From positions 1-64,000 of IMG/VR virus record IMGVR_UViG_3300019776_000324: a stretch of 64,000 nucleotides of DNA; one strand, 5' to 3'. The notes under the pieces were generated by a model. That model worked only from the letters and a program-made list of their open reading frames with translations, did not search any database and had not been told where the DNA came from. A program made the position numbers and the translations under genes. This document shows positions 3,649-22,124 of this stretch, in pieces; position 1 is the stretch's first letter; the number at the start of each line of letters is the position of its first letter. This DNA comes from a virus.

Positions 3649-3663
3649 GGATGTTTTTTCTGG

Positions 3664-4145: not shown

Positions 4146-5231
4146 ATGTCAGATACAAGAACAGTCAATTCAGTTCAAGCTCGTAAAAGTTTACTGAAAG
4201 CATTCAAAAAACAACGCCCATTATTTTTATGGGGTCCTCCTGGTATTGGTAAGTCAGAGTTGGTTGCTGACTTGACTGAAGAACTAGGTGGTGCTATGAT
4301 CGACCTTCGGTTGGGTCAGATGGAGCCGACAGATATTCGCGGTATTCCTTTTTATAACAAAGATTTGGGCAAGATGGATTGGGCTGAGCCTATCGATTTG
4401 CCAGATGCAGAATTTGCTGGACAGTATCCGATTGTAGTCTTGTTCTTGGACGAGATGAATTCAGCGGCACCATCAGTTCAAGCGGCTGCTTATCAGTTGA
4501 TTTTGAATCGTCGTATTGGCAAGTATAAAATGCCAGACAATGTAGTTATTGTGGCCGCAGGTAATCGCGAGTCAGACAAAGGTGTTACATATCGTATGCC
4601 TACTCCGCTTGCAAATCGTTTCATTCACCAAGAGATGAAGGTAGACTTTGCGGCTTGGCAAGATTGGGCTGTTAACCACGGCATCCATAAAGATGTGGTT
4701 GGTTACTTGACCTACGCTAAACAGGACTTGAATGAGTTCGATGCTAAATCAGCTAGTCGTGCATTCGCTACTCCACGCTCATGGACATTCGTATCACAGT
4801 TGTTAGAAGACGAAGATGGTGATGATGACACTATCATGAACTTGGTTGCAGGCACTGTAGGTGAAGGACTTGCTGTTAAGTTTATGGCACACCGCAAGAT
4901 TGCTGGTAAAATGCCTAAGCCAGAAGATATCTTGGCTGGTAAGGAAAAAGAGCTGAATGTCAAAGAAGTATCGGCTATGTACAGCTTGGTAATCTCCATG
5001 TGCTACGAGCTTAAAGCGGCTGTAGAAGCCAAGGTAGAGGACAAGAAGTTCCATGAAATGGCAGATAACTTCTTTGCCTACATGATGAAGAACTTTGAAA
5101 CTGAACTTGTGGTAATGGGAGCCCGCATAGCACTTACGACCTATAATTTGCCATTCCAACCAACTAAGTTGAAAAACTTTGATGAGTTCCATAAAAGATA
5201 CGGCAAGTATATTTTACAAGCCAGTGCATAG
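4146..5231 (+). CDS. MoxR/CobS-like AAA+ ATPase (AAA_5 type)
   Basis: Walker A LWGPPGIGKSELV. Walker B VVLFLDEMN. Sensor region VVIVAAGNRE...MPTPLANRF. About 360 aa, typical of MoxR/CobS. Confidence 0.75.
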   Translation: MSDTRTVNSVQARKSLLKAFKKQRPLFLWGPPGIGKSELVADLTEELGGAMIDLRLGQMEPTDIRGIPFYNKDLGKMDWAEPIDLPDAEFAGQYPIVVLFLDEMNSAAPSVQAAAYQLILNRRIGKYKMPDNVVIVAAGNRESDKGVTYRMPTPLANRFIHQEMKVDFAAWQDWAVNHGIHKDVVGYLTYAKQDLNEFDAKSASRAFATPRSWTFVSQLLEDEDGDDDTIMNLVAGTVGEGLAVKFMAHRKIAGKMPKPEDILAGKEKELNVKEVSAMYSLVISMCYELKAAVEAKVEDKKFHEMADNFFAYMMKNFETELVVMGARIALTTYNLPFQPTKLKNFDEFHKRYGKYILQASA

Positions 5232-5236
5232 TAAAC

Positions 5237-5310: not shown

Positions 5311-5505
5311 GCCCTTTAATGCTTCACTAATCTTACGCTTGGTCTCTTCACTCATTGTATAGGTCCGACCTTTCATTGGCGATACACGACCTTTTAATTT
5401 AGCTGATCTTTTAGCATTCGCTTCTTCGGTTTGCGGTTTACCAGGCAACCCATTTTTAGCCCAGGTTGACCTGAAATTAGCTCTATAGTATAATAGTGTT
5501 ATCAT
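5293..5505 (-). CDS. NUMOD3-repeat DNA-binding protein, probably a remnant of a freestanding homing endonuclease
   Basis: Two NUMOD3-like repeats (QTEEANAKRSAKLKGR and MSEETKRKISEALKGKTKG). Lone - strand gene in a + block, wedged between a terminator and a promoter. No nuclease domain present. Confidence 0.45.
   Translation of the reverse strand: MITLLYYRANFRSTWAKNGLPGKPQTEEANAKRSAKLKGRVSPMKGRTYTMSEETKRKISEALKGKTKGA
5466..5494 (+). promoter_or_regulatory. sigma70-consensus promoter (TTGACC-N17-TATAAT)
   Basis: TTGACC 5466-5471, TATAAT 5489-5494, then AGTGTTATCAT. Lies inside the 5' end of the - strand NUMOD3 ORF and drives the small-gene array. Confidence 0.6.
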
Positions 5506-5525
5506 GTTAAAAACAGGGGCAAATA

Positions 5526-5753
5526 ATGACTAAACTATTAATAGATCGCCTAGATAGATTAACTCTCCTGGTATCTGAATACTATTTTCCTCAATGGATC
5601 GAACAAGGGTATGGAGCACCAAAAGAAAGCTCCTGGCGTCAAATATTTGAATGGTGTTTAGACTGTGGCATTGAGTGTAATAGAGGTCGTGGCACTACCT
5701 TAAGATTTCATAAAGAAACAGATGTTACAGCATTTATGTTAAAGTGGAGTTGA
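5526..5753 (+). CDS. small-protein family member (C-term FMLKWS)
   Basis: 75 aa; the tail AFMLKWS matches the array consensus. Confidence 0.6.
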   Translation: MTKLLIDRLDRLTLLVSEYYFPQWIEQGYGAPKESSWRQIFEWCLDCGIECNRGRGTTLRFHKETDVTAFMLKWS

Positions 5754-5755
5754 AA

Positions 5756-5956
5756 ATGAACTATTTAAGTATAGCACAGATTGATGAAGTAAAGATGGAA
5801 ATGGATGACCTGCTGATACCTATCGCAAAGATTAGTTTAAGTATTCGTCCTGAAGATATACAAAATATGATAATGATGCACGGCCCAGACTTTATGCCAG
5901 AACTACAGCGTATGATTGGCGAAATTGTATTGGATTCTTATAAGACTCAGGATTAA
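5756..5956 (+). CDS. small hypothetical protein (66 aa, no family tail)
   Basis: ATG 3 nt after the upstream TGA. The track GTG start at 5744 was rejected. Confidence 0.45.
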   Translation: MNYLSIAQIDEVKMEMDDLLIPIAKISLSIRPEDIQNMIMMHGPDFMPELQRMIGEIVLDSYKTQD

Positions 5957-5993
5957 ACAGGCTGTGTCGCTACAGCCTTCCACCTTTACTATT

Positions 5994-6332
5994 ATGTTCA
6001 CTATGAAATTTAAAATCGTCAAAACTGATCGTAGGCATACTGCCAATCAAGTATTCCGGTACTATGTTGAGCCTGCATACGAATTAGGTGTTGGCCGTGA
6101 CGAGCGTATTGAAATGTTTAAAGAGTTGCGAGCTTGGTGTTGGGAACAGTTTGGGCCTGGTTGCGAGCGTGATTATGTTGTGCTACACCCGGTTCCTGCG
6201 GGCATAGATGGTCAGTGTCGAATGGCAACTCAAGAGCGTTGGGCTTGGCTTACTACAACTGACACTAATTCGGTGTTGAGAATCTATTTTAACGATGATG
6301 AACTAGCGTGGTTTAAACTCAAGTGGGCATGA
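5994..6332 (+). CDS. small-protein family member (C-term WFKLKWA)
   Basis: Start set at the first ATG after the upstream stop; the track start 5916 overlaps the previous gene. Tail DDDELAWFKLKWA. Confidence 0.5.
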   Translation: MFTMKFKIVKTDRRHTANQVFRYYVEPAYELGVGRDERIEMFKELRAWCWEQFGPGCERDYVVLHPVPAGIDGQCRMATQERWAWLTTTDTNSVLRIYFNDDELAWFKLKWA

Positions 6333-6538
6333 TGATTCGAATTGCCAATTTACAACAGCGTGATGGAATCCATCACTGGCTCAAAGATCGTGGAATCTAT
6401 CGTGATCTTTATGAGTTGGGTTATGACTTTGGTGATTCATCTGACGAGGGCATAGAACTCTGGCCCGTGCTTAGAATCAACGACGGTGTGTTATCAGCAA
6501 CTGATGTAACTGAATTTATATTAAGGTTTGGTGTATGA
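6329..6538 (+). CDS. small-protein family member (variant tail FILRFGV)
   Basis: ATGA overlap with the upstream stop; 69 aa. Confidence 0.5.
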   Translation: MMIRIANLQQRDGIHHWLKDRGIYRDLYELGYDFGDSSDEGIELWPVLRINDGVLSATDVTEFILRFGV

Positions 6539-6735
6539 CCCAGGTTGAATGTCACATACCTATGAGCCGTATGGAGGAGATTACAGAATGGTTGCACAAC
6601 AACATCGGCCCAGGTTGGATACACCCCGACACACATGTTTGGAGTTATGGTGAGCTGTATGAATCAGTTCATTTTAGCCGTGAACAGGATGCCGTTATGT
6701 TTAAACTAAAATGGGCTGGAAATGAAAACATATAA
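6535..6735 (+). CDS. small-protein family member (tail EQDAVMFKLKWAGNENI)
   Basis: ATGA overlap; 66 aa. Confidence 0.6.
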   Translation: MTQVECHIPMSRMEEITEWLHNNIGPGWIHPDTHVWSYGELYESVHFSREQDAVMFKLKWAGNENI

Positions 6736-7075
6736 GCGTACAATTATTATCCGTGAAAGAGATCTTTGTAGTCTAATGTACAAGACTATTAAAAAAGGCC
6801 TGTTTGACCGCATTGATGTAGAACCGTTAACCTATCAAGAAATACAAAACGAAATATTAATAGATACATTAAAGGGCACACCAACTCGTAAGTGGAGTGT
6901 ATTGCCTGATGTGTATGAAACACTAATGTACAAGGAAGGTAACTTGTACAACAAGCAGTATTTGTCCTGGTTGTTGACCATGGATTATCCTAACGGACAG
7001 ATCTATGTGCAGAGCCGTTCAGGCGAACCCACTGATCCTTTACACCGTGTGACTTTTGAGAAAGACTATGCGTAA
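6722..7075 (+). CDS. hypothetical protein (117 aa)
   Basis: ORF in the array without the family tail. Confidence 0.5.
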   Translation: MKTYKRTIIIRERDLCSLMYKTIKKGLFDRIDVEPLTYQEIQNEILIDTLKGTPTRKWSVLPDVYETLMYKEGNLYNKQYLSWLLTMDYPNGQIYVQSRSGEPTDPLHRVTFEKDYA

Positions 7076-7313
7076 ACGCCTACACGAATCTCGTTACTTT
7101 AGACTGCAACAAGAGCACACAGCCAAAGGTCGCAAGTTCTATAGAATTGTATTCTGGAAACTGTGGCCACTGAGCGTAGACGACGAAGAACGAATTAGAG
7201 ATGTAATAGATCCACAGCGTAGCCGAAGTGGTCGAAATGGAACCAATTGGAAATATACTAATCGCAAGGAAGCAGAACAAATGTATAGTATGTTGTTGTT
7301 AAGGTGGAGTTAA
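7068..7313 (+). CDS. small-protein family member (tail MLLLRWS)
   Basis: ATG 7068 overlaps the upstream stop; the track TTG start at 7056 was rejected. Confidence 0.55.
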   Translation: MRKRLHESRYFRLQQEHTAKGRKFYRIVFWKLWPLSVDDEERIRDVIDPQRSRSGRNGTNWKYTNRKEAEQMYSMLLLRWS

Positions 7314-7315
7314 AG

Positions 7316-7675
7316 ATGAAACATTATTTGTCATTTATTCAGTGGTTAATTCAGCGTATGTTTCGGACTGTTATATCAGGACCAGTTAGACTTTTTAAAT
7401 GGTATAAAGGTCGACTATATTACGAAACATTTTTAACCATACTGGCATCCATTGTTGGTTGGGCCATGCTGTTATTTGCAGGTGCTGTCGCATCAACTAC
7501 TAATGTTAATGGTAAGTTGGTAGTTGAGACTGATGATGTTTGGCCATTTATAATAGCTTTGTTTGCGCCGCCTGTGGTGTTTATTGTGGCTTGCGTTTCT
7601 ATTCAATATGATCATTACTGTTCAGAGCTAGAGCGCACTATGAAAACTCTTAAAGGCAAGCATGACAGTATATAA
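7316..7675 (+). CDS. small membrane protein (2 TM)
   Basis: ATG 3 nt after the upstream TAA. Hydrophobic helices LASIVGWAMLLFAGAV and WPFIIALFAPPVVFIVACV. Confidence 0.5.
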   Translation: MKHYLSFIQWLIQRMFRTVISGPVRLFKWYKGRLYYETFLTILASIVGWAMLLFAGAVASTTNVNGKLVVETDDVWPFIIALFAPPVVFIVACVSIQYDHYCSELERTMKTLKGKHDSI

Positions 7676-7865
7676 AGCAAAGATGCCAGAAGCATGGGCT
7701 CGTATGGAATGGTGTCGAGCTCAGTTCGGTGGCGAAGGTGAACCAAATTGGGAAAAGTATGGCGGAGTTGATATTGCCCATGGACTACGCTGGTGGCGTA
7801 GACAAGGCTACTTGTTCTTTCGCAATGAACGAGATTTTGTCCTATACTGTTTGAGGTGGGCATGA
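7662..7865 (+). CDS. small-protein family member (tail RDFVLYCLRWA)
   Basis: 67 aa; ends in the conserved junction TTGAGGTGGGCATGA. Confidence 0.6.
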   Translation: MTVYKAKMPEAWARMEWCRAQFGGEGEPNWEKYGGVDIAHGLRWWRRQGYLFFRNERDFVLYCLRWA

Positions 7866-8227
7866 AGATTAAAGAATTTTACCATGAGTTTGAAATGCTA
7901 GTGCGACCAAGTTCACGCAGGTTGCGTCGTATGAAAAATCCTGGATACAGATCCGATGTATGGAATGCCTATATCGATGATTCTATGATATATGACATCA
8001 GTAATGTTGCTGAAGAAGTTGAGTGTGTGGAGGTGCTCATGCCTGCGGACCGTCTTGAAGAGTTGGAACAACTATTAAAACATTATGAAAAAATGGAAGA
8101 ATCGCATCAGCACAGGCATGTTGTTATTAGTAAGCTGAGAGAGGACGAGCGAGTGCGTATTAAAAATCCTGCTGTTCGTCAAGCATGGGAACACTACTTA
8201 ACATTATTAAACTTGTGCAGAGATTAA
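7862..8227 (+). CDS. hypothetical protein (121 aa)
   Basis: ATGA overlap start. No family tail. Confidence 0.5.
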   Translation: MKIKEFYHEFEMLVRPSSRRLRRMKNPGYRSDVWNAYIDDSMIYDISNVAEEVECVEVLMPADRLEELEQLLKHYEKMEESHQHRHVVISKLREDERVRIKNPAVRQAWEHYLTLLNLCRD

Positions 8228-8228
8228 G

Positions 8229-8471
8229 ATGAATAGCAAAGATAGACGCAAAGATCGTAGAGCATGGAAGTATTCTGTAGCTACTCCTCATGTAATGATG
8301 ACTGGAGTTGCGGGCATGCAAGACGAGTATGATGCAATGTGGAACTGGTGCAAGGAAAACTTTGGTAGCGATGCTCGTTACTGTGGATGGCGTGATCGTG
8401 AGTGGGGTGAGCGTTGGGAGTTTAACGACAGTAAGAAAGCTGCACTATTTTCTCTAAGGTGGAGTAGATGA
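8229..8471 (+). CDS. small-protein family member (tail KKAALFSLRWSR)
   Basis: 80 aa. Confidence 0.6.
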   Translation: MNSKDRRKDRRAWKYSVATPHVMMTGVAGMQDEYDAMWNWCKENFGSDARYCGWRDREWGERWEFNDSKKAALFSLRWSR

Positions 8472-8803
8472 AACTAGAACCTTGGCAGGCAGAAGTATTT
8501 GTTAAGTATTGCGAGAATGATATCAAAATGACCATGAATATAGGCCGTCAGACGGGCAAATCAACATGGGTAAGTATGTTAAGGAACTTTATGGAACGAC
8601 CAGAAAAACGATTTCAATTAGTATCGGGAATCTATAACTACTCACTAATGATCGAAGACTACATGTGGTGGGCTGACAATGAGCGTGAAATACTTAACTG
8701 GATGGCGGAGAACTTACCGCGCGGCATTGAACATCAACAGGGCATGATTCTTACATTTGATACAGACAAACAGCGTATGATGTTCTTGTTGAGGTGGGCA
8801 TGA
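8468..8803 (+). CDS. small-protein family member (tail KQRMMFLLRWA)
   Basis: ATGA overlap; 111 aa. Confidence 0.6.
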   Translation: MKLEPWQAEVFVKYCENDIKMTMNIGRQTGKSTWVSMLRNFMERPEKRFQLVSGIYNYSLMIEDYMWWADNEREILNWMAENLPRGIEHQQGMILTFDTDKQRMMFLLRWA

Positions 8804-9075
8804 CAGTAAAGTATGTTGACGGTTGGTACGAAATAGAGCATCTCCCGCCTAAAGAGATCTGGGCAGTTCATAGCAAAGAATGGGCATGGAAACCTAGACG
8901 AAATTGGTGTAGGAAAACATTTGCTCCGGGTGAATGGGAAATGCGCGATCCTATATATCATTACAGTATAGGTCCTAGCGGACCCGGTAAACGAATACTA
9001 TCAACTACACCATTAACCTGGCGATTCAAGCGTGAAGCTGATGCCTTGTTGTTTACCTTAAGGTGGGCCAAATGA
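8800..9075 (+). CDS. small-protein family member (tail ADALLFTLRWAK)
   Basis: ATG 8800 (track GTG 8794 rejected). ATGA overlap. Confidence 0.6.
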   Translation: MTVKYVDGWYEIEHLPPKEIWAVHSKEWAWKPRRNWCRKTFAPGEWEMRDPIYHYSIGPSGPGKRILSTTPLTWRFKREADALLFTLRWAK

Positions 9076-9353
9076 ATGTTGCTATCCAGCGTGTAACCGA
9101 TATACTTGAAAATTTAATAGCCGAAGAGGCCGCAAAAGAAATGCAAGCAAGTATGGACTATGATGTGCTATGTGAAGTAATGATACCATTTGGTTATACT
9201 GCTGTCCAAATTGAGTACGGCAACAACAAGCGGTGGATTGATGTCATGGCATGGGTGGACAGCAACCGTGTTGGTGATTATCAAGAGCACAAAGGTAAAT
9301 GGTTGTTTAAAAATGAACAAGATGCTATAATGTTTAAGTTGAGGTGGGCCTGA
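9072..9353 (+). CDS. small-protein family member (tail EQDAIMFKLRWA)
   Basis: ATG 9072 overlaps the upstream TGA. Confidence 0.6.
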   Translation: MNVAIQRVTDILENLIAEEAAKEMQASMDYDVLCEVMIPFGYTAVQIEYGNNKRWIDVMAWVDSNRVGDYQEHKGKWLFKNEQDAIMFKLRWA

Positions 9354-9544
9354 TGTTTGATGAAAAGAATCGTGTTATAGTATTATCCGCTGGCAGTACA
9401 CAACAGGAGAAACTTGATTGGTGTTGTGATCATTTGGCAGGAACGGTTATGTGCCATCCTATCACTTACGGTCTTGATGATGCTGAGATATGGTATTTTG
9501 AAACGGGTGAAGAATCTACTATGTTTGCGTTAAGGTGGGCATGA
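9353..9544 (+). CDS. small-protein family member (tail EESTMFALRWA)
   Basis: TGATG 1-nt overlap; 63 aa. Confidence 0.55.
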   Translation: MFDEKNRVIVLSAGSTQQEKLDWCCDHLAGTVMCHPITYGLDDAEIWYFETGEESTMFALRWA

Positions 9545-9780
9545 AGATAGAAACTACATGGGATAACCTTAATAAGGTCCCTTGGACAGCAATTAACCGA
9601 GCTGGTGACTATTATCATACGCATGTTAGATCTACAAAGGGTGCTTTCATTGATAGATTAAAGGCCGGTGCCGAATATAGCGCCTGGATGCGAAACAATT
9701 GGGGAATACACCACGAGCCTTTGGAATTCAAAATAGTCGATGAGAAAAAATACACCATGTTCTTGTTGAGGTGGGCATGA
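9541..9780 (+). CDS. small-protein family member (tail EKKYTMFLLRWA)
   Basis: ATGA overlap. Confidence 0.6.
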   Translation: MKIETTWDNLNKVPWTAINRAGDYYHTHVRSTKGAFIDRLKAGAEYSAWMRNNWGIHHEPLEFKIVDEKKYTMFLLRWA

Positions 9781-10007
9781 AAGTAAAGAAAACCGATCCA
9801 ACCTTGTTTGTTGATCCGTATGGAGAAGCCAAACAGAAGTTGTTGAACCGAGGCTATGTTGCTATACCAGTGACTAAGAATCATAACTGGACCGGCATTC
9901 ATGAATGGTGCAAACAATATCTACACTTTGACTACACCTGGTTTGGTTTAGAATTTTGGTTTGCTGACGAACAAGATGCTGTGTTATTTCAGTTGAGGTG
10001 GGCATAA
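9777..10007 (+). CDS. small-protein family member (tail EQDAVLFQLRWA)
   Basis: ATGA overlap. Confidence 0.6.
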   Translation: MKVKKTDPTLFVDPYGEAKQKLLNRGYVAIPVTKNHNWTGIHEWCKQYLHFDYTWFGLEFWFADEQDAVLFQLRWA

Positions 10008-10177
10008 TGTCACTTAATCAAGATTATGCAGTTTCGTGTAAAAACATAACCAACGACCAATGGAACTGGTTGTGCAATACCATAGGAACTCCTACAAAAG
10101 ATTGGCACTATAACTTTGCACATATTTGGTTCTATAAAGAAGAACATAAGACTCTTTGGCTGTTGAGGTGGGCATAA
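10007..10177 (+). CDS. small-protein family member (56 aa, tail HKTLWLLRWA), absent from the ORF track
   Basis: ATG at 10007 overlaps the upstream TAA (TAATG). Translates to MSLNQDYAVSCKNITNDQWNWLCNTIGTPTKDWHYNFAHIWFYKEEHKTLWLLRWA. Ends in the same TTGAGGTGGGCATAA junction. Confidence 0.55.
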   Translation: MSLNQDYAVSCKNITNDQWNWLCNTIGTPTKDWHYNFAHIWFYKEEHKTLWLLRWA

Positions 10178-10178
10178 C

Positions 10179-10427
10179 ATGGCACAATTTTATCAAGGAC
10201 CACACTTTTGGGACAAGAGTACTTACGAAGTTACTGTAAAGACTACTCGGTATCGCGTTCGCCAAGTGTGGATTGATGATATGATCAAGTGGGCTAAAGA
10301 ACGAGAAATAAGCATTCACTGGCAAGGCGAAAGCACTCATGTCCACAACGATGATGAATGGCACGAAGCACACTTCTGCATTTACGACAGCAATGATCGT
10401 ATGTTATTTGCGTTGAGGTGGGCATGA
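10179..10427 (+). CDS. small-protein family member (tail NDRMLFALRWA)
   Basis: 82 aa. Confidence 0.6.
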   Translation: MAQFYQGPHFWDKSTYEVTVKTTRYRVRQVWIDDMIKWAKEREISIHWQGESTHVHNDDEWHEAHFCIYDSNDRMLFALRWA

Positions 10428-10723
10428 GTCTATCAAATCAAGCAAAGAATATAAAAGGTCACATGGATCTGTTTCCAGAAAAGTGGAACGATAACCGTGC
10501 CAAACGAGATAGATTTTGGGCGATGTTAAGACGGGTCAAATCAGACTATTTTACCCTAGTCAAAGATTTGGGCAACGATCCCGACGATGGAAGTTTTTAT
10601 ACATACATGCAGGATACCTATGGTATAAAACTAATATTAACAAACCGTGGTGAGATCACAGACATGTTTGAAGTTACAGATGAAAAGAAACAAATGATGT
10701 TTATTTTAAAATACGGATCATGA
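10424..10723 (+). CDS. small-protein family member (variant tail KKQMMFILKYGS)
   Basis: ATGA overlap. Confidence 0.55.
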   Translation: MSLSNQAKNIKGHMDLFPEKWNDNRAKRDRFWAMLRRVKSDYFTLVKDLGNDPDDGSFYTYMQDTYGIKLILTNRGEITDMFEVTDEKKQMMFILKYGS

Positions 10724-10944
10724 TTAGAGTTAGTACCAAAGACGAAGCGTTTATGCAAGCATATCACAATGCTCGTCGTGCCTTACCGGTTGAAACTCTA
10801 GAAAGCCCCAGGCAGTATGGTGCTCGCTGGCGAGAAACATATTGTTGCAGAGTAGATGCAAACGGAAATAATAAGATAGACGAAACTTATTATGTCTTTG
10901 ACAACGATGAAGATTACACTTGGTTTATGTTACGATGGGGTTAA
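10720..10944 (+). CDS. small-protein family member (tail DEDYTWFMLRWG)
   Basis: ATGA overlap. Confidence 0.6.
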   Translation: MIRVSTKDEAFMQAYHNARRALPVETLESPRQYGARWRETYCCRVDANGNNKIDETYYVFDNDEDYTWFMLRWG

Positions 10945-11159
10945 AGATCGCTGTCAAAGATTCAGCCGAAGCATTTGGCCTTAAAATGGAAGTAGACCGT
11001 CATGGCCTGCGTCCTGGTGCAGGATATACTTGGCGTTATACTCCAGCGGTAAGAGATTACTTTGGCCTCATAGCCGAAGAAGAGGATGTGGCTCGAGTAG
11101 AGTTTGAGTTTGACGATCCAAAGTGGGCAACATATTTTCAATTACGGTGGGCACAATGA
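10935..11159 (+). CDS. small-protein family member (tail KWATYFQLRWAQ)
   Basis: First ATG after the overlap region; the track start 10920 was rejected. Confidence 0.5.
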   Translation: MGLKIAVKDSAEAFGLKMEVDRHGLRPGAGYTWRYTPAVRDYFGLIAEEEDVARVEFEFDDPKWATYFQLRWAQ

Positions 11160-11470
11160 CAACTACAACAGTATATAATCTAGCAGATGGTAGTGTAGTA
11201 GAGCTAAAAACCAATCCAGGTGCAGCACCTATTGTATTCCTTAATGGTGTTATACAACAACCTGGAACTTATTCCTTGTCAGGAACAAATGTCATATTTG
11301 ATACACCGCAAAAAACATGGCAATGGCAACAGCATTATGCTTGGTTACCAAAGCGCATTAATGGTAAGTGGTATTGGTTTACTTATGTTTATCGTTACTG
11401 GTGTCTATCGCCTGGCGGAGGATTTTGGCGATATGGCGACGACTTTGACAAATTAAAGGACACCAAATGA
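11156..11470 (+). CDS. hypothetical protein (104 aa, no family tail)
   Basis: ATGA overlap start; the track start 11123 was rejected. Confidence 0.45.
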   Translation: MTTTTVYNLADGSVVELKTNPGAAPIVFLNGVIQQPGTYSLSGTNVIFDTPQKTWQWQQHYAWLPKRINGKWYWFTYVYRYWCLSPGGGFWRYGDDFDKLKDTK

Positions 11471-11724
11471 GTTGGAAACCCATGGTAGACTATGAAGAAT
11501 CGGTTCCTCTAAAGCGTCGAGCAACCAAGAAAAAGGTTTGGGATGAATTGACTCAAACCTGGAAAGATGCTACAATATGGACTGTAATCTATAATCGTGA
11601 GCTAAAGGATTGGTTAGAAGAGACCTATCCTGGCAAGCAAGGGTGGGGCACTGCCTGGAGCGATAGCAAGATTATCATGGAAGAACCAGTTTACTTACAT
11701 TATTGTTTAAAGTTTGGAGCATGA
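11467..11724 (+). CDS. small-protein family member (variant tail VYLHYCLKFGA)
   Basis: ATGA overlap. Confidence 0.55.
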   Translation: MSWKPMVDYEESVPLKRRATKKKVWDELTQTWKDATIWTVIYNRELKDWLEETYPGKQGWGTAWSDSKIIMEEPVYLHYCLKFGA

Positions 11725-11951
11725 TGTCACCTTGGGAATACTTACGCGAGTGGAATCTAATGGAAAAGCCGGATTCACGCCGAGCCAGTAGAGAGTGGAT
11801 CAATCAAGAAATGCAGAGTCACTGGCCAGGTCCGTATCGTGTGGAACGATGCCAATCACGCTATGCTGGCACAGGTTGGCGTATTGATTACGAGATTAAA
11901 TTTGCGGATCCTCAAGAAGAAACAATGTTTAGATTAAAGTTTGGAGCATAA
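11721..11951 (+). CDS. small-protein family member (tail QEETMFRLKFGA)
   Basis: ATGA overlap; the track start 11703 was rejected. Confidence 0.55.
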   Translation: MMSPWEYLREWNLMEKPDSRRASREWINQEMQSHWPGPYRVERCQSRYAGTGWRIDYEIKFADPQEETMFRLKFGA

Positions 11952-12334
11952 TGGATAGAGATTTAGAAGACGATCTTAAGAACGATGCCTTGGTCATGGA
12001 AAAGATCAAGGATCGTCGCTATGCTCAAAATGTCTATGCCGCACTGTGCAACATGCGTTGGCAACCTGAGGAAGTATGGCCTGTGCTCACTGATGAATAC
12101 TGGTCATGTAGTTGGCGCAGTGCTGGTGGGCTTGTAGCTGATCTTAGAGTTGACTTTAATGAAGATTACATGGATTGGTATTGTTCAGGTATTAGTGGAG
12201 GATTTGATTTTGAATCTGATGACGAAGAGCGTAATAAAGGATATGTTGCAGAAGGGGAAGTAACAGATGAAATTCGTGAAGATTTTGCTCGCTTGGGTTG
12301 GCATCCAAGTCCATGGCCTAAAGACGAGGTATAA
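11951..12334 (+). CDS. acidic hypothetical protein (127 aa)
   Basis: TAATG overlap. Asp/Glu-rich. No family tail. Confidence 0.5.
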   Translation: MDRDLEDDLKNDALVMEKIKDRRYAQNVYAALCNMRWQPEEVWPVLTDEYWSCSWRSAGGLVADLRVDFNEDYMDWYCSGISGGFDFESDDEERNKGYVAEGEVTDEIREDFARLGWHPSPWPKDEV

Positions 12335-12338
12335 TAAT

Positions 12339-12572
12339 ATGTTTGTTAAAGATGTTGAAAAAATGATTATCGGCAGTTTAAAAGAAGTTATGAAGGATCG
12401 CAATCTTTTTTATAACTCAACTGTGGGGCCGGAGTACTGTCACTTAACCAACGAGGGTGCAAAGGCTATTACTGACATGTGTAATGTCTTACTACCTAGG
12501 TTGCTTAAAGCACAAGAGCTAGAAGATATTGAACGCAGTAAAATGATAGTTATGCAAGAACTTAAAAAATGA
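12339..12572 (+). CDS. hypothetical protein (77 aa)
   Basis: ATG 12339 with GACGAGGT SD; the track start 12267 was rejected. Confidence 0.45.
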   Translation: MFVKDVEKMIIGSLKEVMKDRNLFYNSTVGPEYCHLTNEGAKAITDMCNVLLPRLLKAQELEDIERSKMIVMQELKK

Positions 12573-12835
12573 ACAGTCACGACCGTAGAGTTGTAGAGCG
12601 AGCATGGCCACACCATGTTTATCTGCACGATGGTGACAGTTTAGTTGAAGATTGTTTTGAATGGTTACACACAAATTTTGGTTCATGCCGTTGGACTGGC
12701 AAGCGCAATCCGCGCTGGTGCTGGCGTCCAGATATGGGTCAAGGCCCTAACTTTGTTATAATGCGACATGGTGTAGAAATATTCTTCCGTAAGAAAGAAG
12801 ATTACGCTTGGTTTATGTTAAAGTGGGATAGATGA
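12569..12835 (+). CDS. small-protein family member (tail KEDYAWFMLKWDR)
   Basis: ATGA overlap. Confidence 0.6.
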   Translation: MNSHDRRVVERAWPHHVYLHDGDSLVEDCFEWLHTNFGSCRWTGKRNPRWCWRPDMGQGPNFVIMRHGVEIFFRKKEDYAWFMLKWDR

Positions 12836-13116
12836 ATTACTATTACGAAATTAGTGAAAAGTATGATGGCACTGTGTTTGGCGACCGGTGGCGTTACTGG
12901 TGCTTGGCCAACTGTAGCCCAGCTGAAGGTGGCAAAATGTGTTTTAAAACACACGACGAGTTTGTAGCTCGTAGCAGTCGTGTATGGTTAGAAAATGCCA
13001 ATGGTGTTTATCAAATCAAGCCCGACTGGTATGGCATGCGTGGGCAAGTGGATCCACATGAGTTTACTATGATTAAACTAAAATCACGAGTGTATAAATG
13101 GTGGTACGATGAATGA
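12832..13116 (+). CDS. small-protein family member (degenerate tail FTMIKLKSRVYKWWYDE)
   Basis: ATGA overlap. The motif is displaced from the C-terminus. Confidence 0.45.
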   Translation: MNYYYEISEKYDGTVFGDRWRYWCLANCSPAEGGKMCFKTHDEFVARSSRVWLENANGVYQIKPDWYGMRGQVDPHEFTMIKLKSRVYKWWYDE

Positions 13117-13450
13117 TGATGACATAAAAGCCTTGCATAACAAGCTACGAGGTTACAGCAAACAACTACCTGGGCAAGCCGGCGACGAATACTATGAAAG
13201 TCAGGCCGCTAGATTAGATACTATCATAGGTGGCGACACTGGCCACTTCCAACGCTTGCAACGAGTACGCAACGAATGGGACGAGCTAGCTAGAGCTGTG
13301 CCTGTTGGACAAGGTTTCTTAACATTCTACGACTATGTAAAAGAGTACTATGGTATCAAACTAATGTATGACGGCGATGATCTAAAGTTAGAATATAGTA
13401 TTATAGACGAAAAGAAGTACACTGTGTTCTTATTGAAGTTTGATAGATAA
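13109..13450 (+). CDS. small-protein family member (tail EKKYTVFLLKFDR)
   Basis: 113 aa. Confidence 0.55.
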   Translation: MNDDDIKALHNKLRGYSKQLPGQAGDEYYESQAARLDTIIGGDTGHFQRLQRVRNEWDELARAVPVGQGFLTFYDYVKEYYGIKLMYDGDDLKLEYSIIDEKKYTVFLLKFDR

Positions 13451-13704
13451 TGCATATAAACAATTTTACTTTACCTACTCCGCCGCAGGAATTACTAGAC
13501 AAGTGTATTCAAGTTGCATTTGATGGTGAGGGCCGGTTTATGAGTAAAATGCGCCGCTGGTGTTACGATCATACAGAATCATTTGTATGGGCAGATCGTA
13601 TTGACATGAGCGATAGTAGCTACTGGACCGGCCCGGATGATTATGTAGTGTTTTATTTTTATAAAGAAATTGATGCTACACTATTTAGATTAAAGTGGCT
13701 ATGA
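13450..13704 (+). CDS. small-protein family member (tail IDATLFRLKWL)
   Basis: TAATG overlap. Confidence 0.55.
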   Translation: MHINNFTLPTPPQELLDKCIQVAFDGEGRFMSKMRRWCYDHTESFVWADRIDMSDSSYWTGPDDYVVFYFYKEIDATLFRLKWL

Positions 13705-13925
13705 TTGATCGTAATCCACTGTTAACCATTCCTGTAAAAACCTACGCTCATTATAGTGAGTGCGAACCTTGGCTGTTGGCCAATGTAGGTGGCTGGAATG
13801 ACTTATGGTGGAGAGATTTTCAAGATGTTGCTATGCATGTGGCCTTAGGCGAAGGAACACAACCAGACTGCTATTGGTTTTGTCGTGAACAAGATGCCTT
13901 GATGTTTAGGTTAAAATTTCAATGA
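13701..13925 (+). CDS. small-protein family member (tail EQDALMFRLKFQ)
   Basis: ATG 13701 with ATGA overlap; the track start 13695 was rejected. Confidence 0.55.
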   Translation: MIDRNPLLTIPVKTYAHYSECEPWLLANVGGWNDLWWRDFQDVAMHVALGEGTQPDCYWFCREQDALMFRLKFQ

Positions 13926-14143
13926 TATGGTCCATGATCATTGCCAAGGTCTTGACTACAGTGATGTCGTGGTTAGATGCTGGCAATCTACGCAACAAGG
14001 TTTACAAGCAGGCTGAAGAAGCAGAAATCATGATGACTGCCTTAGAAGATATTGAACGCATGAGCAAGGAAGACCGGATCAAACACTATGCTCGTACAGC
14101 AATTAACACAGTAAAAGGATTGCCCATTGAAGACGACTATTAA
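13922..14143 (+). CDS. hypothetical protein (73 aa)
   Basis: ATGA overlap. No family tail. Confidence 0.45.
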   Translation: MIWSMIIAKVLTTVMSWLDAGNLRNKVYKQAEEAEIMMTALEDIERMSKEDRIKHYARTAINTVKGLPIEDDY

Positions 14144-14468
14144 GCACAACTTGATTATCTTTCATCGTCCTAAAGAGTGGGATGAACTACAACAACGATT
14201 AATAGATGAATATGGTCGTAGTGTTATTCTGGTTCGAGACAAGTGTCGTCGTGAGCTGGGATTTACTCCCCGCCATCACAGGGGTTTAATTCCTTACCTA
14301 GACAAATGGGGACACGGCGTGGTAAGAAACTCTGGTGCTACCAAAGAGCAAGCTGACAAGTTTATTGCAGAAAATAAACACAAAATGGCCTACGACAATC
14401 AGGTACATTTAGACTTCTATAGCGAAGCAGCAATGAGCTGGTTTGTGCTAAAATATCTTAATGACTAG
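14127..14468 (+). CDS. small-protein family member (variant tail AAMSWFVLKYLND)
   Basis: Only possible start is TTG 14127, with AAAAGGA 8 nt upstream. Confidence 0.4.
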   Translation: MKTTIKHNLIIFHRPKEWDELQQRLIDEYGRSVILVRDKCRRELGFTPRHHRGLIPYLDKWGHGVVRNSGATKEQADKFIAENKHKMAYDNQVHLDFYSEAAMSWFVLKYLND

Positions 14469-14471
14469 CGG

Positions 14472-14500
14472 TTGACCAGAAATTCCATTTCGGTTATAAT
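14472..14500 (+). promoter_or_regulatory. sigma70-consensus promoter (TTGACC-N17-TATAAT), ATG 6 nt downstream
   Basis: TTGACC 14472-14477, TATAAT 14495-14500, then AGTAGTATG with the start codon at 14507. Confidence 0.6.
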
Positions 14501-14506
14501 AGTAGT

Positions 14507-14797
14507 ATGAAAGTGATTAAATTAGACCGAAGATACGCCGGCTTTCCTAAGTGGAAGTATGCCTGCCAATTTCCTGTAAGAAATCACAATTATCGAAAAG
14601 AATATTTTAACTACGTTCGGACATTTAAAGAATTGTTTGGTGCAGAATCTCAGTCAAACCCTGACCGTAATACCGGCGATTGGTCTAAGCCTTTTTGGAT
14701 TTATAACGAGCACTGGTGCACTGACTTTCCTAAACAGCGAATTCTTGTTAAAGATCAAGCGGTTATAAGCATGATCATGCTGAAAATGCCCGGTTGA
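14507..14797 (+). CDS. small-protein family member (variant tail DQAVISMIMLKMPG), probably on a leaderless mRNA
   Basis: ATG at 14507 is 6 nt after the TATAAT box with no SD. DQAVISMIMLKM resembles EQDAVMFKLKWA. Confidence 0.5.
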   Translation: MKVIKLDRRYAGFPKWKYACQFPVRNHNYRKEYFNYVRTFKELFGAESQSNPDRNTGDWSKPFWIYNEHWCTDFPKQRILVKDQAVISMIMLKMPG

Positions 14798-14822
14798 CTC
14801 GAAATGCCCAAAATGCTATAAT
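14794..14822 (+). promoter_or_regulatory. sigma70-consensus promoter (TTGACT-N17-TATAAT)
   Basis: TTGACT 14794-14799 contains the upstream TGA stop. TATAAT 14817-14822, then TAGTTAGAAATTAGGAGCAGAA before ATG 14853. Confidence 0.65.
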
Positions 14823-14852
14823 ATTACATATAGTTAGAAATTAGGAGCAGAA

Positions 14853-15583: not shown

Positions 15584-16867
15584 ATGACCACTAGCACACA
15601 AAACAAAAAAGAATCAGACAAGTTTAAAAACTTATTGGGTCCGACTAACCCTAAAGTTGATGCAGATGTTCGTGAGAAGTTGATTACTGCTCGTGTGGGC
15701 TTGTTACTTCGTGCAAGTTTCTTTGGTAACTTGGCTACTCGCTTAAAGTTAGTCAATGCTGATGAATGGTGTCCAACAGCCGCAACTGATGGTCGTCACT
15801 TTTACTACAATACCCGTTTCGTAAACATGCTCAAGCCAAAAGAGATTGAGTTCTTGTTTGGTCATGAGGTCTTGCACTGTGTTTACGATCACTTTGGCCG
15901 TCGTGGCGATCGTGACCATCAACTGTTTAACATTGCCAATGACTATTGCGTAAACGCAGACTTGAAGAAACATCGTGTGGGCGAGTTTATTACATCAGTA
16001 CCTTGCTTGTACGATGCCAAGTACGAAGGTATGAGTTCAGAAGAGATTTATGATCTCTTGTATGAAAATGCTGAAAAGATCAATATCAGTGATTTGATTG
16101 ACAAATTGCTCGATGATCACTTGGATGGTAATGGTGACGGGGAAGGTGAAGATGGCGATGAGAAAGATGGCAAAGGCAAGGGTCGCCCTAAACTAAGCGC
16201 AGAAGAGCGTCAACAGATCAAAGATGAGATCAAAGAAGCTGTATTGGCTGCGGCTGCCGCTAGCGACGGTGCAGGTAACTTGCCAGCAGGTGTCAAGCGT
16301 ATCATTGAAGATATGACTGCACCTAAAATGAACTGGCGCGAGTTGTTGCGTATGCAATTAGAGTCAACTATCAAGACTGACTACACTTGGATGCGCTCTA
16401 GCCGTAAAGGCTGGCACATGGATGCTATTATGCCTGGACAGAAGTTTGATGAGCTTATTGATATTGCTGTTAGTATTGACGCTTCAGGCAGTATGGGCGA
16501 AGCTATGCTCAAAGATATCTTGTCAGAAGTGCAAGGTATTGTAGACAGTTTCCCAGCTTACAAACTGCACATTGTATCGTTTGATACTCAGATTTACAAT
16601 CCACAGACTTACGACAGTGAGAACTTGGACAATCTAGTAGACTACGAAATCCACGGTGGTGGCGGTACAGACTTTGATTGTGTGTTTGAATACTTCAAAG
16701 AAAATGACATCCAACCCAAGCGTCATATCATGTTTACTGACGGTTACCCATGTGGTAGTTGGGGTGATGAGAACTACTGTGATACTGTGTTTATCATGCA
16801 CGGTACTACTAGCATTGTTCCACCGTTTGGTCAGTACGCTTACTATGAGGAAGAAAAGAGTCACTAA
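15584..16867 (+). CDS. metallopeptidase-like (HExxH) plus von Willebrand factor A domain protein, partner of MoxR-type AAA+ ATPases
   Basis: GHEVLHCVYDH zinc-binding-type motif in the N-terminal half. MIDAS motif DASGSMG and downstream T/D ligands in the C-terminal half. An acidic Gly/Asp/Glu/Lys linker (DGNGDGEGEDGDEKDGKGKG) joins them. Confidence 0.65.
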   Translation: MTTSTQNKKESDKFKNLLGPTNPKVDADVREKLITARVGLLLRASFFGNLATRLKLVNADEWCPTAATDGRHFYYNTRFVNMLKPKEIEFLFGHEVLHCVYDHFGRRGDRDHQLFNIANDYCVNADLKKHRVGEFITSVPCLYDAKYEGMSSEEIYDLLYENAEKINISDLIDKLLDDHLDGNGDGEGEDGDEKDGKGKGRPKLSAEERQQIKDEIKEAVLAAAAASDGAGNLPAGVKRIIEDMTAPKMNWRELLRMQLESTIKTDYTWMRSSRKGWHMDAIMPGQKFDELIDIAVSIDASGSMGEAMLKDILSEVQGIVDSFPAYKLHIVSFDTQIYNPQTYDSENLDNLVDYEIHGGGGTDFDCVFEYFKENDIQPKRHIMFTDGYPCGSWGDENYCDTVFIMHGTTSIVPPFGQYAYYEEEKSH

Positions 16868-21773: not shown

Positions 21774-22124
21774 ATGTTCAAGGCCATAAACGAATTGCAT
21801 CCGAGAAATCGTTCTGCTGAAGCAGACAAACTGTTCAAAGCACCAGAGTGGCGACTTGTTGACGATAAAGCTGTTAAGTTTTCGGATGTAATGGTTCATT
21901 CGTTCAACATGGGCGATGTAGAAGATCCAGATCTATATGCTGCACAACCCATTATGGAATGGCAGAACAGCGAAGCAGGACAATGGGTTATAGAACATGC
22001 TGTGGAGAAACCCTTCTGGCATCGTGTGTTGAGTCCTTACACTTATGGATGGACATATTATATTGTAGCTCGACTTGCTGAGCAAGATCAAACATACTGG
22101 ACACTTAAATGGCAAAAATCTTAG
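21774..22124 (+). CDS. distant member of the small-protein family (tail EQDQTYWTLKWQKS), probably leaderless
   Basis: C-terminus resembles the EQDAxMFKLKWA tails of the array. ATG 6 nt after TATAAT. Confidence 0.5.
   Translation: MFKAINELHPRNRSAEADKLFKAPEWRLVDDKAVKFSDVMVHSFNMGDVEDPDLYAAQPIMEWQNSEAGQWVIEHAVEKPFWHRVLSPYTYGWTYYIVARLAEQDQTYWTLKWQKS

Follow-up and report, generated by a model that had tools for sequence, protein, structure and literature searches.

An analogue of the locus presented here is the "ORFanage" of phage S-PM2, a 10-kb block of 33 small ORFs that is lost spontaneously with a gain of fitness in the laboratory (PMC4503421). In Agrobacterium phage Atu_ph07, the genes for a MoxR-like ATPase and for a DUF2201/VWA protein are adjacent. 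The 64,000-nucleotide stretch analysed here (the window; IMG/VR record IMGVR_UViG_3300019776_000324) comes from an uncultivated freshwater jumbo myovirus, a distant relative of Atu_ph07 and of Pseudomonas phage PA5oct. In this genome, an array of small genes stands between the ATPase and DUF2201/VWA genes, and it is therefore an insertion into a conserved gene pair (Table 1). The array measures 10.3 kb, compared with 4.5–4.8 kb in the related genomes L001 and L003, always between the same two genes. The ORF listing and the curated gene map give 35 head-to-tail genes of 58–127 residues on the + strand, spanning positions 5526–14797, as described in a first-pass annotation of the sequence (about 35 tightly packed small ORFs between 5.5 and 14.8 kb). 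The gap is at most 4 nt at 32 of the 34 internal junctions, and the genes overlap at 27, mostly by ATGA (−4) or TAATG (−1).

Table 1. Features of the array and its surroundings (window coordinates; SD, Shine-Dalgarno sequence; omega, ratio of non-synonymous to synonymous substitution).
Feature	Position	Strand	Evidence
MoxR-like AAA+ ATPase, upstream flank	4146..5231	+	phrog_1297 E 6e-97; Pfam AAA, AAA_3, AAA_5; L001 86% identical
Sigma-70-type consensus promoter (predicted), TTGACC-17-TATAAT	5466..5494	+	11/12 match; just upstream of first array gene
Family member 1	5526..5753	+	75 aa; tail ...AFMLKWS; HMM E 3.7e-15; broad profile E 2.3e-7
Non-family small ORF	5756..5956	+	no family HMM match; no Pfam match
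Family member 2	5994..6332	+	tail ...AWFKLKWA; HMM E 3.6e-11; L003 orthologue 58% identity, omega 0.21
Family member 3 (weak)	6329..6538	+	tail ...EFILRFGV; HMM E 6.5e-6
Family member 4	6535..6735	+	tail ...VMFKLKWAGNENI; HMM E 1.2e-13; broad profile E 4.7e-16
Non-family ORF	6722..7075	+	117 aa; no HMM or Pfam match
Family member 5 (weak)	7068..7313	+	tail ...SMLLLRWS; HMM E 1.6e-5; very basic, pI 10.7
Non-family ORF, hydrophobic, probable membrane protein	7316..7675	+	translation; no Pfam match
Family member 6	7662..7865	+	tail ...VLYCLRWA; HMM E 1.3e-12; broad profile E 2e-15
Non-family ORF	7862..8227	+	~121 aa; no HMM or Pfam match; SD from upstream family tail, dG -10.1
Family member 7	8229..8471	+	tail ...ALFSLRWSR; HMM E 3.7e-15; body alone ranks first (leave-one-out), E 3e-4
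Family member 8	8468..8803	+	tail ...MMFLLRWA; HMM E 4.4e-13; L003 orthologue 71% identity, omega 0.18
Family member 9	8800..9075	+	tail ...LLFTLRWAK; HMM E 2.2e-16
Family member 10	9072..9353	+	tail ...IMFKLRWA; HMM E 1.3e-15
Family member 11	9353..9544	+	tail ...TMFALRWA; HMM E 3.6e-11
Family member 12	9541..9780	+	tail ...TMFLLRWA; HMM E 2.8e-13
Family member 13 (first structure model)	9777..10007	+	tail ...VLFQLRWA; HMM E 1.5e-18
Family member 14	10007..10177	+	tail ...TLWLLRWA; HMM E 8.3e-12
Family member 15	10179..10427	+	tail ...MLFALRWA; HMM E 1.6e-12; cassette missing in L003, L004
Family member 16	10424..10723	+	tail ...MMFILKYGS; HMM E 5.7e-13; L004 orthologue 94% identity, omega 0.22
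Family member 17	10720..10944	+	tail ...TWFMLRWG; HMM E 3.7e-13; omega 0.17
Family member 18	10935..11159	+	tail ...TYFQLRWAQ; HMM E 2e-8
Non-family ORF	11156..11470	+	family HMM E 0.025 only; weak sub-threshold DUF4183 match
Family member 19	11467..11724	+	tail ...HYCLKFGA; HMM E 2.4e-9; SD shifted to GGA codon
Family member 20	11721..11951	+	tail ...TMFRLKFGA; HMM E 1e-12
Non-family ORF	11951..12334	+	127 aa, acidic (pI 4.2), Trp-rich; no HMM or Pfam match
Non-family ORF	12339..12572	+	77 aa; no HMM or Pfam match
Family member 21 (second structure model)	12569..12835	+	tail ...AWFMLKWDR; HMM E 9.3e-16; many metagenomic orthologues
ORF counted as member in the first-pass annotation; not supported	12832..13116	+	HMM E 7.9; hhalign probability 2.9%
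Family member 22	13109..13450	+	tail ...TVFLLKFDR; HMM E 1.6e-14; L001 orthologue 65-69% identity
Family member 23	13450..13704	+	tail ...TLFRLKWL; HMM E 7.5e-15
Family member 24	13701..13925	+	tail ...LMFRLKFQ; HMM E 2.2e-13
Non-family ORF	13922..14143	+	73 aa; no HMM match, no significant Pfam match
Family member 25, last gene of coupled unit	14127..14468	+	tail ...SWFVLKYLND; HMM E 1.9e-13; orthologues in L001, L003
Next consensus promoter (predicted), end of array transcription unit	14472..14500	+	consensus scan
ORF counted as member in the first-pass annotation; not supported	14507..14797	+	HMM E 0.17; hhalign probability 2.6%
DUF2201_N + VWA-like partner of ATPase, downstream flank	15584..16867	+	Pfam E 4e-38, 3e-16
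Outlying divergent family member, adjoins ThyX	21774..22124	+	tail ...TYWTLKWQKS; HMM E 4.8e-4; broad profile E 7e-3

A strict regular expression for the C-terminal tail (phi-phi-x-[LIMV]-[RK]-[WFY], at most five residues from the stop) matched 21 array ORFs and a further one at 21756–22124; no other ORF of 40 codons or more matched, out of 295 on the + strand and 259 on the − strand. The family HMM recovered 25 array members with E-values from 1.5e-18 to 1.6e-5, and the next matches were 21774–22124 (5e-4), 11123–11470 (0.025) and 14507–14797 (0.17). At least 27 tail-sharing genes had been counted previously. This count implicitly takes in 12832–13116 and 14507–14797, both of which failed profile-profile comparison (hhalign probability below 3% each), so that the family has 25 members in the array and one outlier, 21774–22124, beyond it. 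The former ORF has its own orthologue in L001 (65% identity), and the latter is possibly a degenerate relative. The interspersed ORFs that had been set apart as non-family were correctly listed. The members are indeed rich in Trp (5.5%, versus 1.95% in long ORFs) and their bodies are fairly called highly divergent, with a mean pairwise identity of 12% and a maximum of 35%. They had also been described as often acidic, which holds for ten members (pI below 6) but not for seven with a pI above 8; the range of 4.4–10.7 reflects surface diversity among the copies. No recent duplication is directly visible among the paralogues, with identities of at most 35% and no effect of adjacency.

The family, which had not been recognised in the first-pass annotation, has no match in Pfam, PHROG or the PDB. 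It has 1,398 metagenomic representatives at 50% identity (E ≤ 1e-3), and arrays of 12 and 16 members are found in two other large phages (L007 and L008, respectively). All relatives are annotated as unnamed hypothetical proteins; member 17 is identical to one of them, P0003, recorded on a 344,530-bp contig. The family is an uncatalogued, phage-specific small domain.

AlphaFold2 models of members 13 and 21, which are about 20% identical to each other, have the same topology, with pLDDT values of 87.3 and 82.5. In both, the tail forms a helix (67–77 and 76–86, respectively; pLDDT about 90) that runs on from the domain without a disordered linker. The shared tail is predicted from these models to be the terminal amphipathic helix of a compact α/β domain, and not the free docking peptide that had been proposed. 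The core would comprise about 55–60 residues with the topology β1-α1-β2-β3-α2, and its signature would be W-[CL]-x3-[FY]-G in α1, a Trp in β2, phi-x-F in β3 and E-x-D-A-x-x-F-x-L-[RK]-[WFY] in α2. The tail is co-conserved with the N-proximal W-C-x3-F-G helix, the Trp and the F-x-F strand in this genome and also in distant relatives, which retain WC..FG, W, FxF and ExDAxxFxLRW. Most of the conserved residues are aromatic or aliphatic and presumably form the core of the fold. The N-terminal extensions, the α1-β2 loop and the surface charge vary among the copies. When the terminal helix was removed, 5 of the 25 bodies ranked first against 206 decoys in a leave-one-out search, and 16 were in the top 10 of 207 (about 1.2 expected). 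About a third of the bodies are unrecognisable by sequence without this helix; their domain-level homology is suggested by the alignment and by analogy with the two modelled members.

The end of the tail is dual-coded. It typically reads TTG AGG TGG GCA TGA, which contains a strong Shine-Dalgarno (SD) sequence (GAGGTG) and the ATGA start of the next gene. An ATGA or TAATG overlap is present at 19 of 26 member ends. AGG encodes the tail Arg in 12 of 14 cases (binomial P 2.5e-20), compared with a share of 1.6% in long ORFs genome-wide and of 3.6% in family bodies. AGG is likewise used in 10 of 12 cases in the unrelated, cyanophage-like array of L008 (5% background), and the AGG/SD pattern recurs in L001, L004 and L006. 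The mean SD:anti-SD duplex energy is −6.6 kcal/mol after a family member and −3.6 kcal/mol after a non-family gene; long ORFs average −3.7 and random sequence −2.2. Where Phe or Tyr replaces the tail Trp, the protein has one additional residue and the SD lies at a GGA codon instead. Member 25, with AAA TAT codons in its tail, has neither SD nor overlapping start. Selection at the nucleotide level acts strongly on the last three to four codons, which serve as SD and start of the next cistron, and accounts for much of the conservation of the last three to four residues.

It had been anticipated that the shared tail might be only an artefact of the ribosome-binding site, and this proved half true: the last codons are selected for SD and start, but the protein is conserved as well. 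A shared start-stop cassette without any protein family would explain the extreme AGG bias, the frequent ATGA overlaps, the strong duplex after family tails and a pS that is lower in the tail (0.39) than in the body (0.67). Yet pN in the tail is half the body value (0.10 versus 0.20), and from the SD conservation extends upstream over at least 10 codons (F at −2, L at 0, D at −6, E at −8) despite synonymous variation: Leu is written with four codons, and Phe with TTT as well as TTC. The aromatic class is kept over TGG, TTT and TAC codons. The motif also persists in uncoupled members without SD or coupled downstream gene (14127–14468, 21774–22124, Phosso gp576 and Atu_ph07 gp258), and the second of these has orthologues in L001 and L003 at 73–74% identity with an omega of 0.07. 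Together with the WC..FG motif conserved across about 1,400 clusters and the compact folds confidently predicted, these data largely refute a purely nucleotide-level origin, to which we attach almost no probability; the protein-level constraint on the tail, beyond the SD, is real. It is also unlikely that the tail acts as a short linear motif by which unrelated or fast-evolving bodies dock onto a single hub (a sliding clamp, a chaperone or a protease adaptor, for example). In favour of this model, no other segment is nearly as well conserved as the tail, and the bodies alone are only weakly related; a ClpS homologue near the related arrays in L008 and Phosso makes a link to a protease adaptor possible, and binding through the helix's conserved hydrophobic face is conceivable. 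However, the tail is modelled as an integral helix in two divergent members, in distant relatives its presence co-varies with that of the body's conserved Trp/Phe core motifs, and its last residues are in large part explained by the SD and start. The suggested resemblance to QxxxLF clamp-binding peptides did not hold, as Gln is at the required position (−7) in only 6 of 25 members and QL[SD]LF is unmatched.

Each gene thus contains the signals for starting translation of any gene placed after it, and the dual-coded tail makes each gene a plug-in, stackable cassette. Differences in gene content between relatives have their breakpoints exactly at the junction repeat. Cassette O and block I–M have TTGAGGTGGGCAT[AG]A at their boundaries, and the empty site is seen in L003 and L004; the cassette of member 15 is an exact indel, bounded by the junction repeat, without counterpart in these two genomes. 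The six occurrences of GAGGTGGGCAT all lie inside the array. Gain and loss of cassettes at exactly this repeat explain how the array could expand to 25 copies here, compared with 10–11 in the two closest genomes. The copy number bears out the earlier description of the family as hyper-expanded and divergent. Rather than recombination specific to the junction, the gene-boundary indels could in part reflect survivorship, since only in-frame events persist.

A consensus scan found nine perfect TTGAC-N18-TATAAT sites between 3.6 and 18.5 kb, every one of them on the + strand and the site at 5466 included (0.11 expected by chance). No promoter was found between this site and the next one, at 14472, and a single operon is predicted. 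The late structural module is on the − strand, and the array lies among early-type genes. The sigma-70-type consensus promoter ahead of the array makes its early expression likely, and the previous designation as an early-gene array gains support from this predicted element.

We consider it probable that the locus is a translationally coupled, presumably early operon of about 9 kb, in which 25 of 35 genes encode one divergent domain as dual-coded cassettes for putative host-directed binders. The function would most likely be that of a panel of small host-directed binding proteins, each with a target of its own, in host takeover or anti-defence. The domain might instead be a small nucleic-acid-binding module, an RRM-, KH- or ACT-like α/β sandwich, and the array would then encode regulators of early gene expression that bind RNA or DNA; we regard this reading as unlikely.

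Two further readings have parallels in other phages. The members could resemble the injected internal proteins IPI–III of T4, being packaged in the virion and acting before phage transcription. Two L008 array members have N-terminal stretches matching the Gp23 major-capsid profile; in one, the match covers the N-terminal propeptide region (positions 3–31, E 4e-8), which could be a capsid-targeting signal. No window member had such an N-terminus in Pfam scans of 10 window members and of an alignment (A2) that includes 12, and the array lies behind sigma-70-type promoters, outside the late module, so that packaging appears highly improbable. The cassettes could also be mostly selfish or dispensable passengers. 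As the dual-coded junction would let them insert without harm to the expression of neighbouring genes, they would accumulate while adding little to phage fitness. Close relatives differ widely in copy number and content, and the costly S-PM2 ORFanage offers an analogy (PMC4503421). This is not the likely explanation either: orthologues are kept in different genomes under purifying selection (omega 0.07–0.35 in 11 pairs), and the family has persisted over very distant phage lineages.

The head-to-tail arrangement of small genes proposed by the first-pass annotation was confirmed: 35 plus-strand genes occupy window positions 5526-14797, with intergenic gaps of at most 4 nt at 32 of the 34 junctions and overlaps at 27. 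Twenty-seven genes had been thought to share a C-terminal motif, the tail. Membership stands for 25 of these, which are recovered by the family HMM at E ≤ 1.6e-5 and are clearly separated from the rest; the other two (12832-13116 and 14507-14797) are rejected by hhalign and unsupported by the family HMM. The strict tail pattern occurs in 21 array ORFs and in ORF 21756-22124, and in no others among the 554 ORFs of both strands. The high tryptophan content and high divergence noticed at first reading also hold, with 5.5% Trp in members against 1.95%, and a mean identity of 12% (maximum 35%). Members had further been described as often acidic, but the pI ranges from 4.4 to 10.7 and acidity is not general among them. 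Uniform acidity, considered as a hint of DNA mimicry, is rejected on this spread. Recent tandem duplication is also rejected, as paralogues are at most 35% identical and neighbours are no closer than distant genes. The array is real and of unusual size, and it is built from a phage domain family that no catalogue lists.

A divergent member is located outside the array, at 21774-22124 on the plus strand, immediately 3' of ThyX. It is 73-74% identical to its orthologues in L001 and L003, the loci of two relatives. Its ω of 0.07 is the lowest of all orthologue pairs, and of all copies it may be the one under the strongest functional constraint.

The source is an uncultivated freshwater jumbo myovirus, with a GC content of about 40% in the window. 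Its close relatives are contigs of 339 kb and 341 kb and a short freshwater metagenome contig, and one array protein recurs unchanged on a 344,530-bp JGI/ENA metagenome contig. No nucleotide match to the array was found by megablast among 50,697 phage records. The best GenBank phage matches of the MoxR-like ATPase are in PA5oct-like Pseudomonas jumbo phages (51% amino acid identity), Sinorhizobium phage Phosso (45%) and Agrobacterium phage Atu_ph07 (37%). The 4,718-aa ORF may encode a giant fibre or adhesin, and the cluster containing the radical-SAM-like ORFs may be a modification or biosynthetic module. Between the MoxR ATPase gene and the array promoter, a 70-aa minus-strand ORF (5293-5505) contains a clear NUMOD3 motif (E = 1e-10) and resembles what is left of a homing endonuclease reduced to its DNA-binding tail. 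A 92-nt tRNA-Pro (anticodon AGG) was called by ARAGORN at 521-612 on the plus strand, inside the ORF 132-1103. Its length and position are unusual, no tRNA reaches the gathering threshold there in Rfam, and the call may be a false positive.

Positions of genes flanking or distant from the array in the window, and of family members in two cultivated phages
Feature	Genome	Position	Strand	Remarks
MoxR-like AAA+ ATPase	window	4146-5231		
DUF2201_N + VWA-like gene	window	15584-16867		
ThyX	window			identified through the annotations of L001 and L003
Nol-like carbamoyltransferase	window	30265-31773	-	within the 30265-40687 radical-SAM cluster
Radical-SAM-like ORFs (at least 3, clustered)	window	32883-34175, 35392-36852, 39275-40687	-	
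4,718-aa ORF	window	47769-61925	-	FG-GAP and CBM_5_12 repeat matches
Baseplate-wedge homologue	window	61925-63970		directly adjoins the 4,718-aa ORF
Phosso members	L011	6474-7484 and 9842-10159		gp576 clear, E 2e-12; others weaker
Atu_ph07 gp258, gp255	L002	24935-25243 and 26210-26542		E 1e-3 to 2e-5

The product of 9771-10004 was modelled with AlphaFold2 as a compact α0-β1-α1-β2-β3-α2 domain (pLDDT 87.3, pTM 0.68), in which the tail forms a helix (residues 67-77). A second, independent model of the 12569-12832 product, which is about 20% identical to the first and carries a long insertion, has the same topology (pLDDT 82.5, tail helix 76-86). Upstream of the tail, the alignment also retains a helix motif x-x-x-W-[CL]-x3-[FY]-G, a tryptophan and a φ-x-φ-x-F strand. 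With the terminal helix removed, leave-one-out profiles rank 5 of the 25 bodies first among 207 sequences and 16 in the top ten, where about 1.2 are expected. At the level of sequence profiles, the bodies are related, but weakly; for about a third of members, the domain is assigned by alignment and analogy. When 1.84 billion cluster representatives were searched exhaustively with the profile, 1,398 proteins scored E ≤ 1e-3, nearly all of 55-120 aa and with the match running to the C-terminus. Distant relatives carry the whole signature WCxxxFG ... W ... FxFxxExDAxxFxLRW[AGS]. The family thus combines a confidently predicted fold, a clear signature and about 1,400 sequence clusters. In three metagenomic proteins (P0036, P0039 and P0040) two complete domain copies stand in tandem, which shows that neighbouring cassettes can become joined in a single reading frame.

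The first-pass annotation did not recognize the family, and the shared domain indeed has no match in Pfam-A, PHROG v4 or the PDB sequences. When 10 members were searched singly and 48 as an alignment, only single sub-threshold Pfam/PHROG matches were obtained (DUF6600, LZ3wCH and phrog_31356), and no family was matched by more than one of the 48 members. DUF6600 (PF20245) was rejected, its match to one of 48 members (18.9 bits, E = 0.0016) falling below the 27-bit gathering threshold. The best E-value of the PDB profile search was 0.33. The domain was compared with the ferredoxin-like, RRM, KH and ACT two-layer α/β sandwiches; structural neighbours are only generic two-layer sandwiches or uncharacterised phage proteins. 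Database relatives are all unnamed, and within an incomplete coverage of the journals, the literature yielded no prior account of the family or of SD (Shine-Dalgarno)-bearing conserved C-termini in phage arrays. On L008, a 117-kb cyanophage-like contig, two members (7220-7531 and 11112-11447) are extended at the N-terminus by stretches that match the Gp23 major-capsid profile over positions 3-31 and 136-190, and tblastn also aligns them with the N-termini of jumbo-phage capsid proteins. Capsid targeting may be what these extensions serve, or they may be pieces of mosaic genes. T4-type internal proteins are marked by a capsid-targeting N-terminus that the prohead protease removes, and Gp23-like N-termini were seen only in these two L008 relatives. 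Gp23 was not retained as a link to a known family, the Pfam match being limited to the N-terminal extensions of these two proteins.

The codons of the tail are as distinctive as its residues. The tail arginine is encoded by AGG in 12 of 14 cases (binomial P = 2.5e-20), whereas the share of AGG among Arg codons is 1.6% for long ORFs and 3.6% for member bodies. The usual ending, TTG AGG TGG GCA TGA, holds GAGGTG, which is complementary to the 3' end of 16S rRNA, and the ATG of the next gene is made of the last base of the final sense codon and the TG of the stop. The overlap with the next gene takes the form ATGA or TAATG at 19 of 26 member ends. The predicted SD:anti-SD duplex averages -6.6 kcal/mol for genes preceded by a family member, and ten of these duplexes are near -10. 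The corresponding means are -3.6 for genes preceded by a non-family gene, -3.7 for the long ORFs outside the array and -2.2 when 20-mers are drawn at random. On L008, the tail arginine is AGG in 10 of 12 cases, against a 5% background, with an ATGA overlap at 9 of 14 ends, and the embedded SD and start recur in the arrays of the loci L001, L004 and L006. The design thus belongs to the family rather than to the window genome in particular. With its stop-start overlaps and the downstream SD lying inside the upstream gene, the array reads as a translationally coupled operon.

Nine perfect TTGAC-N18-TATAAT sites, all on the plus strand between 3664 and 18499 (chance expectation 0.11), look like a defined early promoter class, several sharing the extended pattern TTGACC.GAAATTCC...GTATAAT. 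One of these sites, at 5466-5494, stands immediately in front of the gene that opens the array; the following one is at 14472. No convincing plus-strand terminators were found between the two, nor were internal promoters or stem-loops found in the array. Most simply, the array is predicted to be a single polycistronic unit, dependent on the host RNA polymerase and presumably early. Small genes placed behind strong host-type early promoters, as is characteristic of host-takeover modules, are observed here, the promoters being consensus predictions only.

What maintains the tail was considered in the light of two opposite readings. The first-pass annotation favoured a docking peptide, possibly for a sliding clamp. 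The consensus is E-x-D-A-x-φ-F-x-L-[RK]-W, and the glutamine at -7 of QL[SD]LF-type clamp-binding peptides is present in only 6 of the 25 members. A clamp peptide should also be flexible and exposed, but in both models the tail is a helix with a pLDDT of about 90, contiguous with the domain. We consider the docking or clamp hypothesis unlikely. At the other extreme, the tail would be a pure artefact of the ribosome-binding site, its conservation confined to the nucleotide level, as the embedded SD might suggest. The protein motif is kept through codon changes, however: the leucine at position 0 uses four codons, the phenylalanine at -2 both of its codons, and the aromatic residue at +2 is retained as TGG, TTT or TAC. 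With Phe or Tyr at +2, the protein gains one residue and a GGA glycine codon provides the SD (K-F-G-A = AAG TTT GGA GCA TGA). The motif is also kept with non-SD codons in the uncoupled members 14127-14468, 21774-22124, Phosso gp576 and Atu_ph07 gp258. A mere artefact is scarcely credible. Across 11 orthologue pairs ω is 0.07-0.35, and the last 12 codons diverge less than the body at both non-synonymous (0.10 vs 0.20) and synonymous sites (0.39 vs 0.67), the lower synonymous divergence being expected of a dual-coded segment. Two overlapping constraints account for the conserved C-terminus, which has to form a helix of the fold and also to carry the signals that start translation of the following gene. 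As a caution for motif hunting in general, a conserved C-terminal "peptide" may in part be a ribosome-binding site seen in a different register.

The array lies between the MoxR-like ATPase gene and its DUF2201/VWA partner in all three related genomes, and these two genes are adjacent in Atu_ph07. In the window the interval measures 10.3 kb and holds 25 members; in L001 and L003 it measures 4.5-4.8 kb, and the array has about 10 members. The gap between the two genes acts as an insertion hot spot. Gene order across relatives is broadly colinear and the differences consist of whole genes. Member 15 (cassette O, 10179-10427) has TTGAGGTGGGCAT[A/G]A on both sides, and the relatives' loci L003 and L004 represent the empty site, with a single junction copy that leads straight into the next gene, whose start is identical. 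A block of five genes, 8800-10007, has the same junction-repeat boundaries, and all six copies of the 11-mer GAGGTGGGCAT in the window are at array junctions. These boundaries fit recombination at the junction repeat, although selection for intact ORFs would also favour boundaries at junctions. It is possible, if less than probable, that the family represents an unrecognised type of phage cassette, in which the dual-coded 3' end of a member would at once form the last turn of the protein's terminal helix, supply the ribosome-binding site and start codon of the following gene, and offer microhomology for insertion, deletion and exchange of cassettes between phages. Large phages could in this way stack and swap small effectors in a single early operon without a dedicated recombinase. 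If true, such arrays would parallel the cassette arrays of integrons at the level of translation and would account for a sizeable share of the small-ORF "dark matter" of aquatic T4-superfamily and jumbo phages. An upstream C-terminus carrying downstream start signals may explain how arrays grow, shrink and continue to work.

As to function, we favour a panel of putative host-directed small binding proteins. Conservation falls mainly on aromatic or aliphatic, core-like positions, whereas the N-terminal extensions, the α1-β2 loop and the charge are free to vary; purifying selection acts on single orthologues within a repertoire that changes quickly; and the genes are located in an early-type operon. 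Nucleic-acid binders, internal proteins packaged in the capsid, and largely dispensable passenger cassettes are possible minority readings, the last of which has to accommodate the purifying selection on orthologues. Small early genes take up a large share of big phage genomes and are the source of most of the anti-defence and host-takeover factors found.

Among cultivated phages, members were found only in Phosso and Atu_ph07, where they are scattered, uncoupled, annotated as hypothetical and devoid of embedded SD. In Phosso gp569 (336 aa), the family motif is internal. A tblastn search with two distant members gave no matches in the 50,697 phage records, and the profile consensus gave one weak match, which pointed to Phosso. 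Since both phages can be cultivated, function is open to deletion and pull-down experiments.

T4-type hyperplastic regions are blocks of small early genes in which relatives differ through recombination at short conserved regulatory sequences, such as PeSLs, intergenic cassettes of a promoter and a stem-loop. The window array resembles these regions as a block of small, presumably early genes varying between relatives. It differs from PeSLs in that its repeat is inside the coding region, at gene 3' ends, and serves to start translation, not transcription. For variable blocks of this kind, PMC4503421 cites refs 36 and 37. The same paper describes the "ORFanage" of cyanophage S-PM2, 33 ORFans in about 10 kb. 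Assignment of this region (p017-p050) to the family was rejected, the best E-values being 0.08 and 0.27 (hmmsearch with both profiles over S-PM2 3000-20000), and the ORFanage is a close analogue in layout, not a homologue. S-PM2p039 (L010, 8429-8614) ends ...KEKDAIKFASRFQ, which is faintly tail-like (E = 0.43); the ORFanage is otherwise unrelated.

In Bacillus phage G, a zinc ribbon is expanded to about 35 copies, and the MoxR-vWA pair occurs in group 2.2 jumbo phages, according to Iyer et al. 2021 (PMC7824862). Searched by terms, the paper showed no mention of the family, nor of "tandem" or "tryptophan", the phage G zinc ribbon being its only lineage-specific expansion. The likeness is that of one small domain massively expanded in one jumbo phage genome, but the family domain is without zinc ligands, and its window copies are contiguous and coupled through a dual-coded junction. 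The module of Bacillus phage SPO1 comprises 26 small early genes for host-directed effectors that shut down host processes (PMC6873191). The window array is likewise a dense cluster of small, presumably early genes, and it too has a host-type consensus promoter together with ribosome-binding sites of unusual strength. One domain accounts for 25 of its 35 genes, whereas no description makes a single paralogous family of the SPO1 genes. We know of no dual-coded C-terminal SD cassette in SPO1. Compared by description, the SPO1 host-takeover module would be the nearest functional comparator, and the array belongs to known types, the hyperplastic early-gene block or the lineage-specific expansion in large phages.
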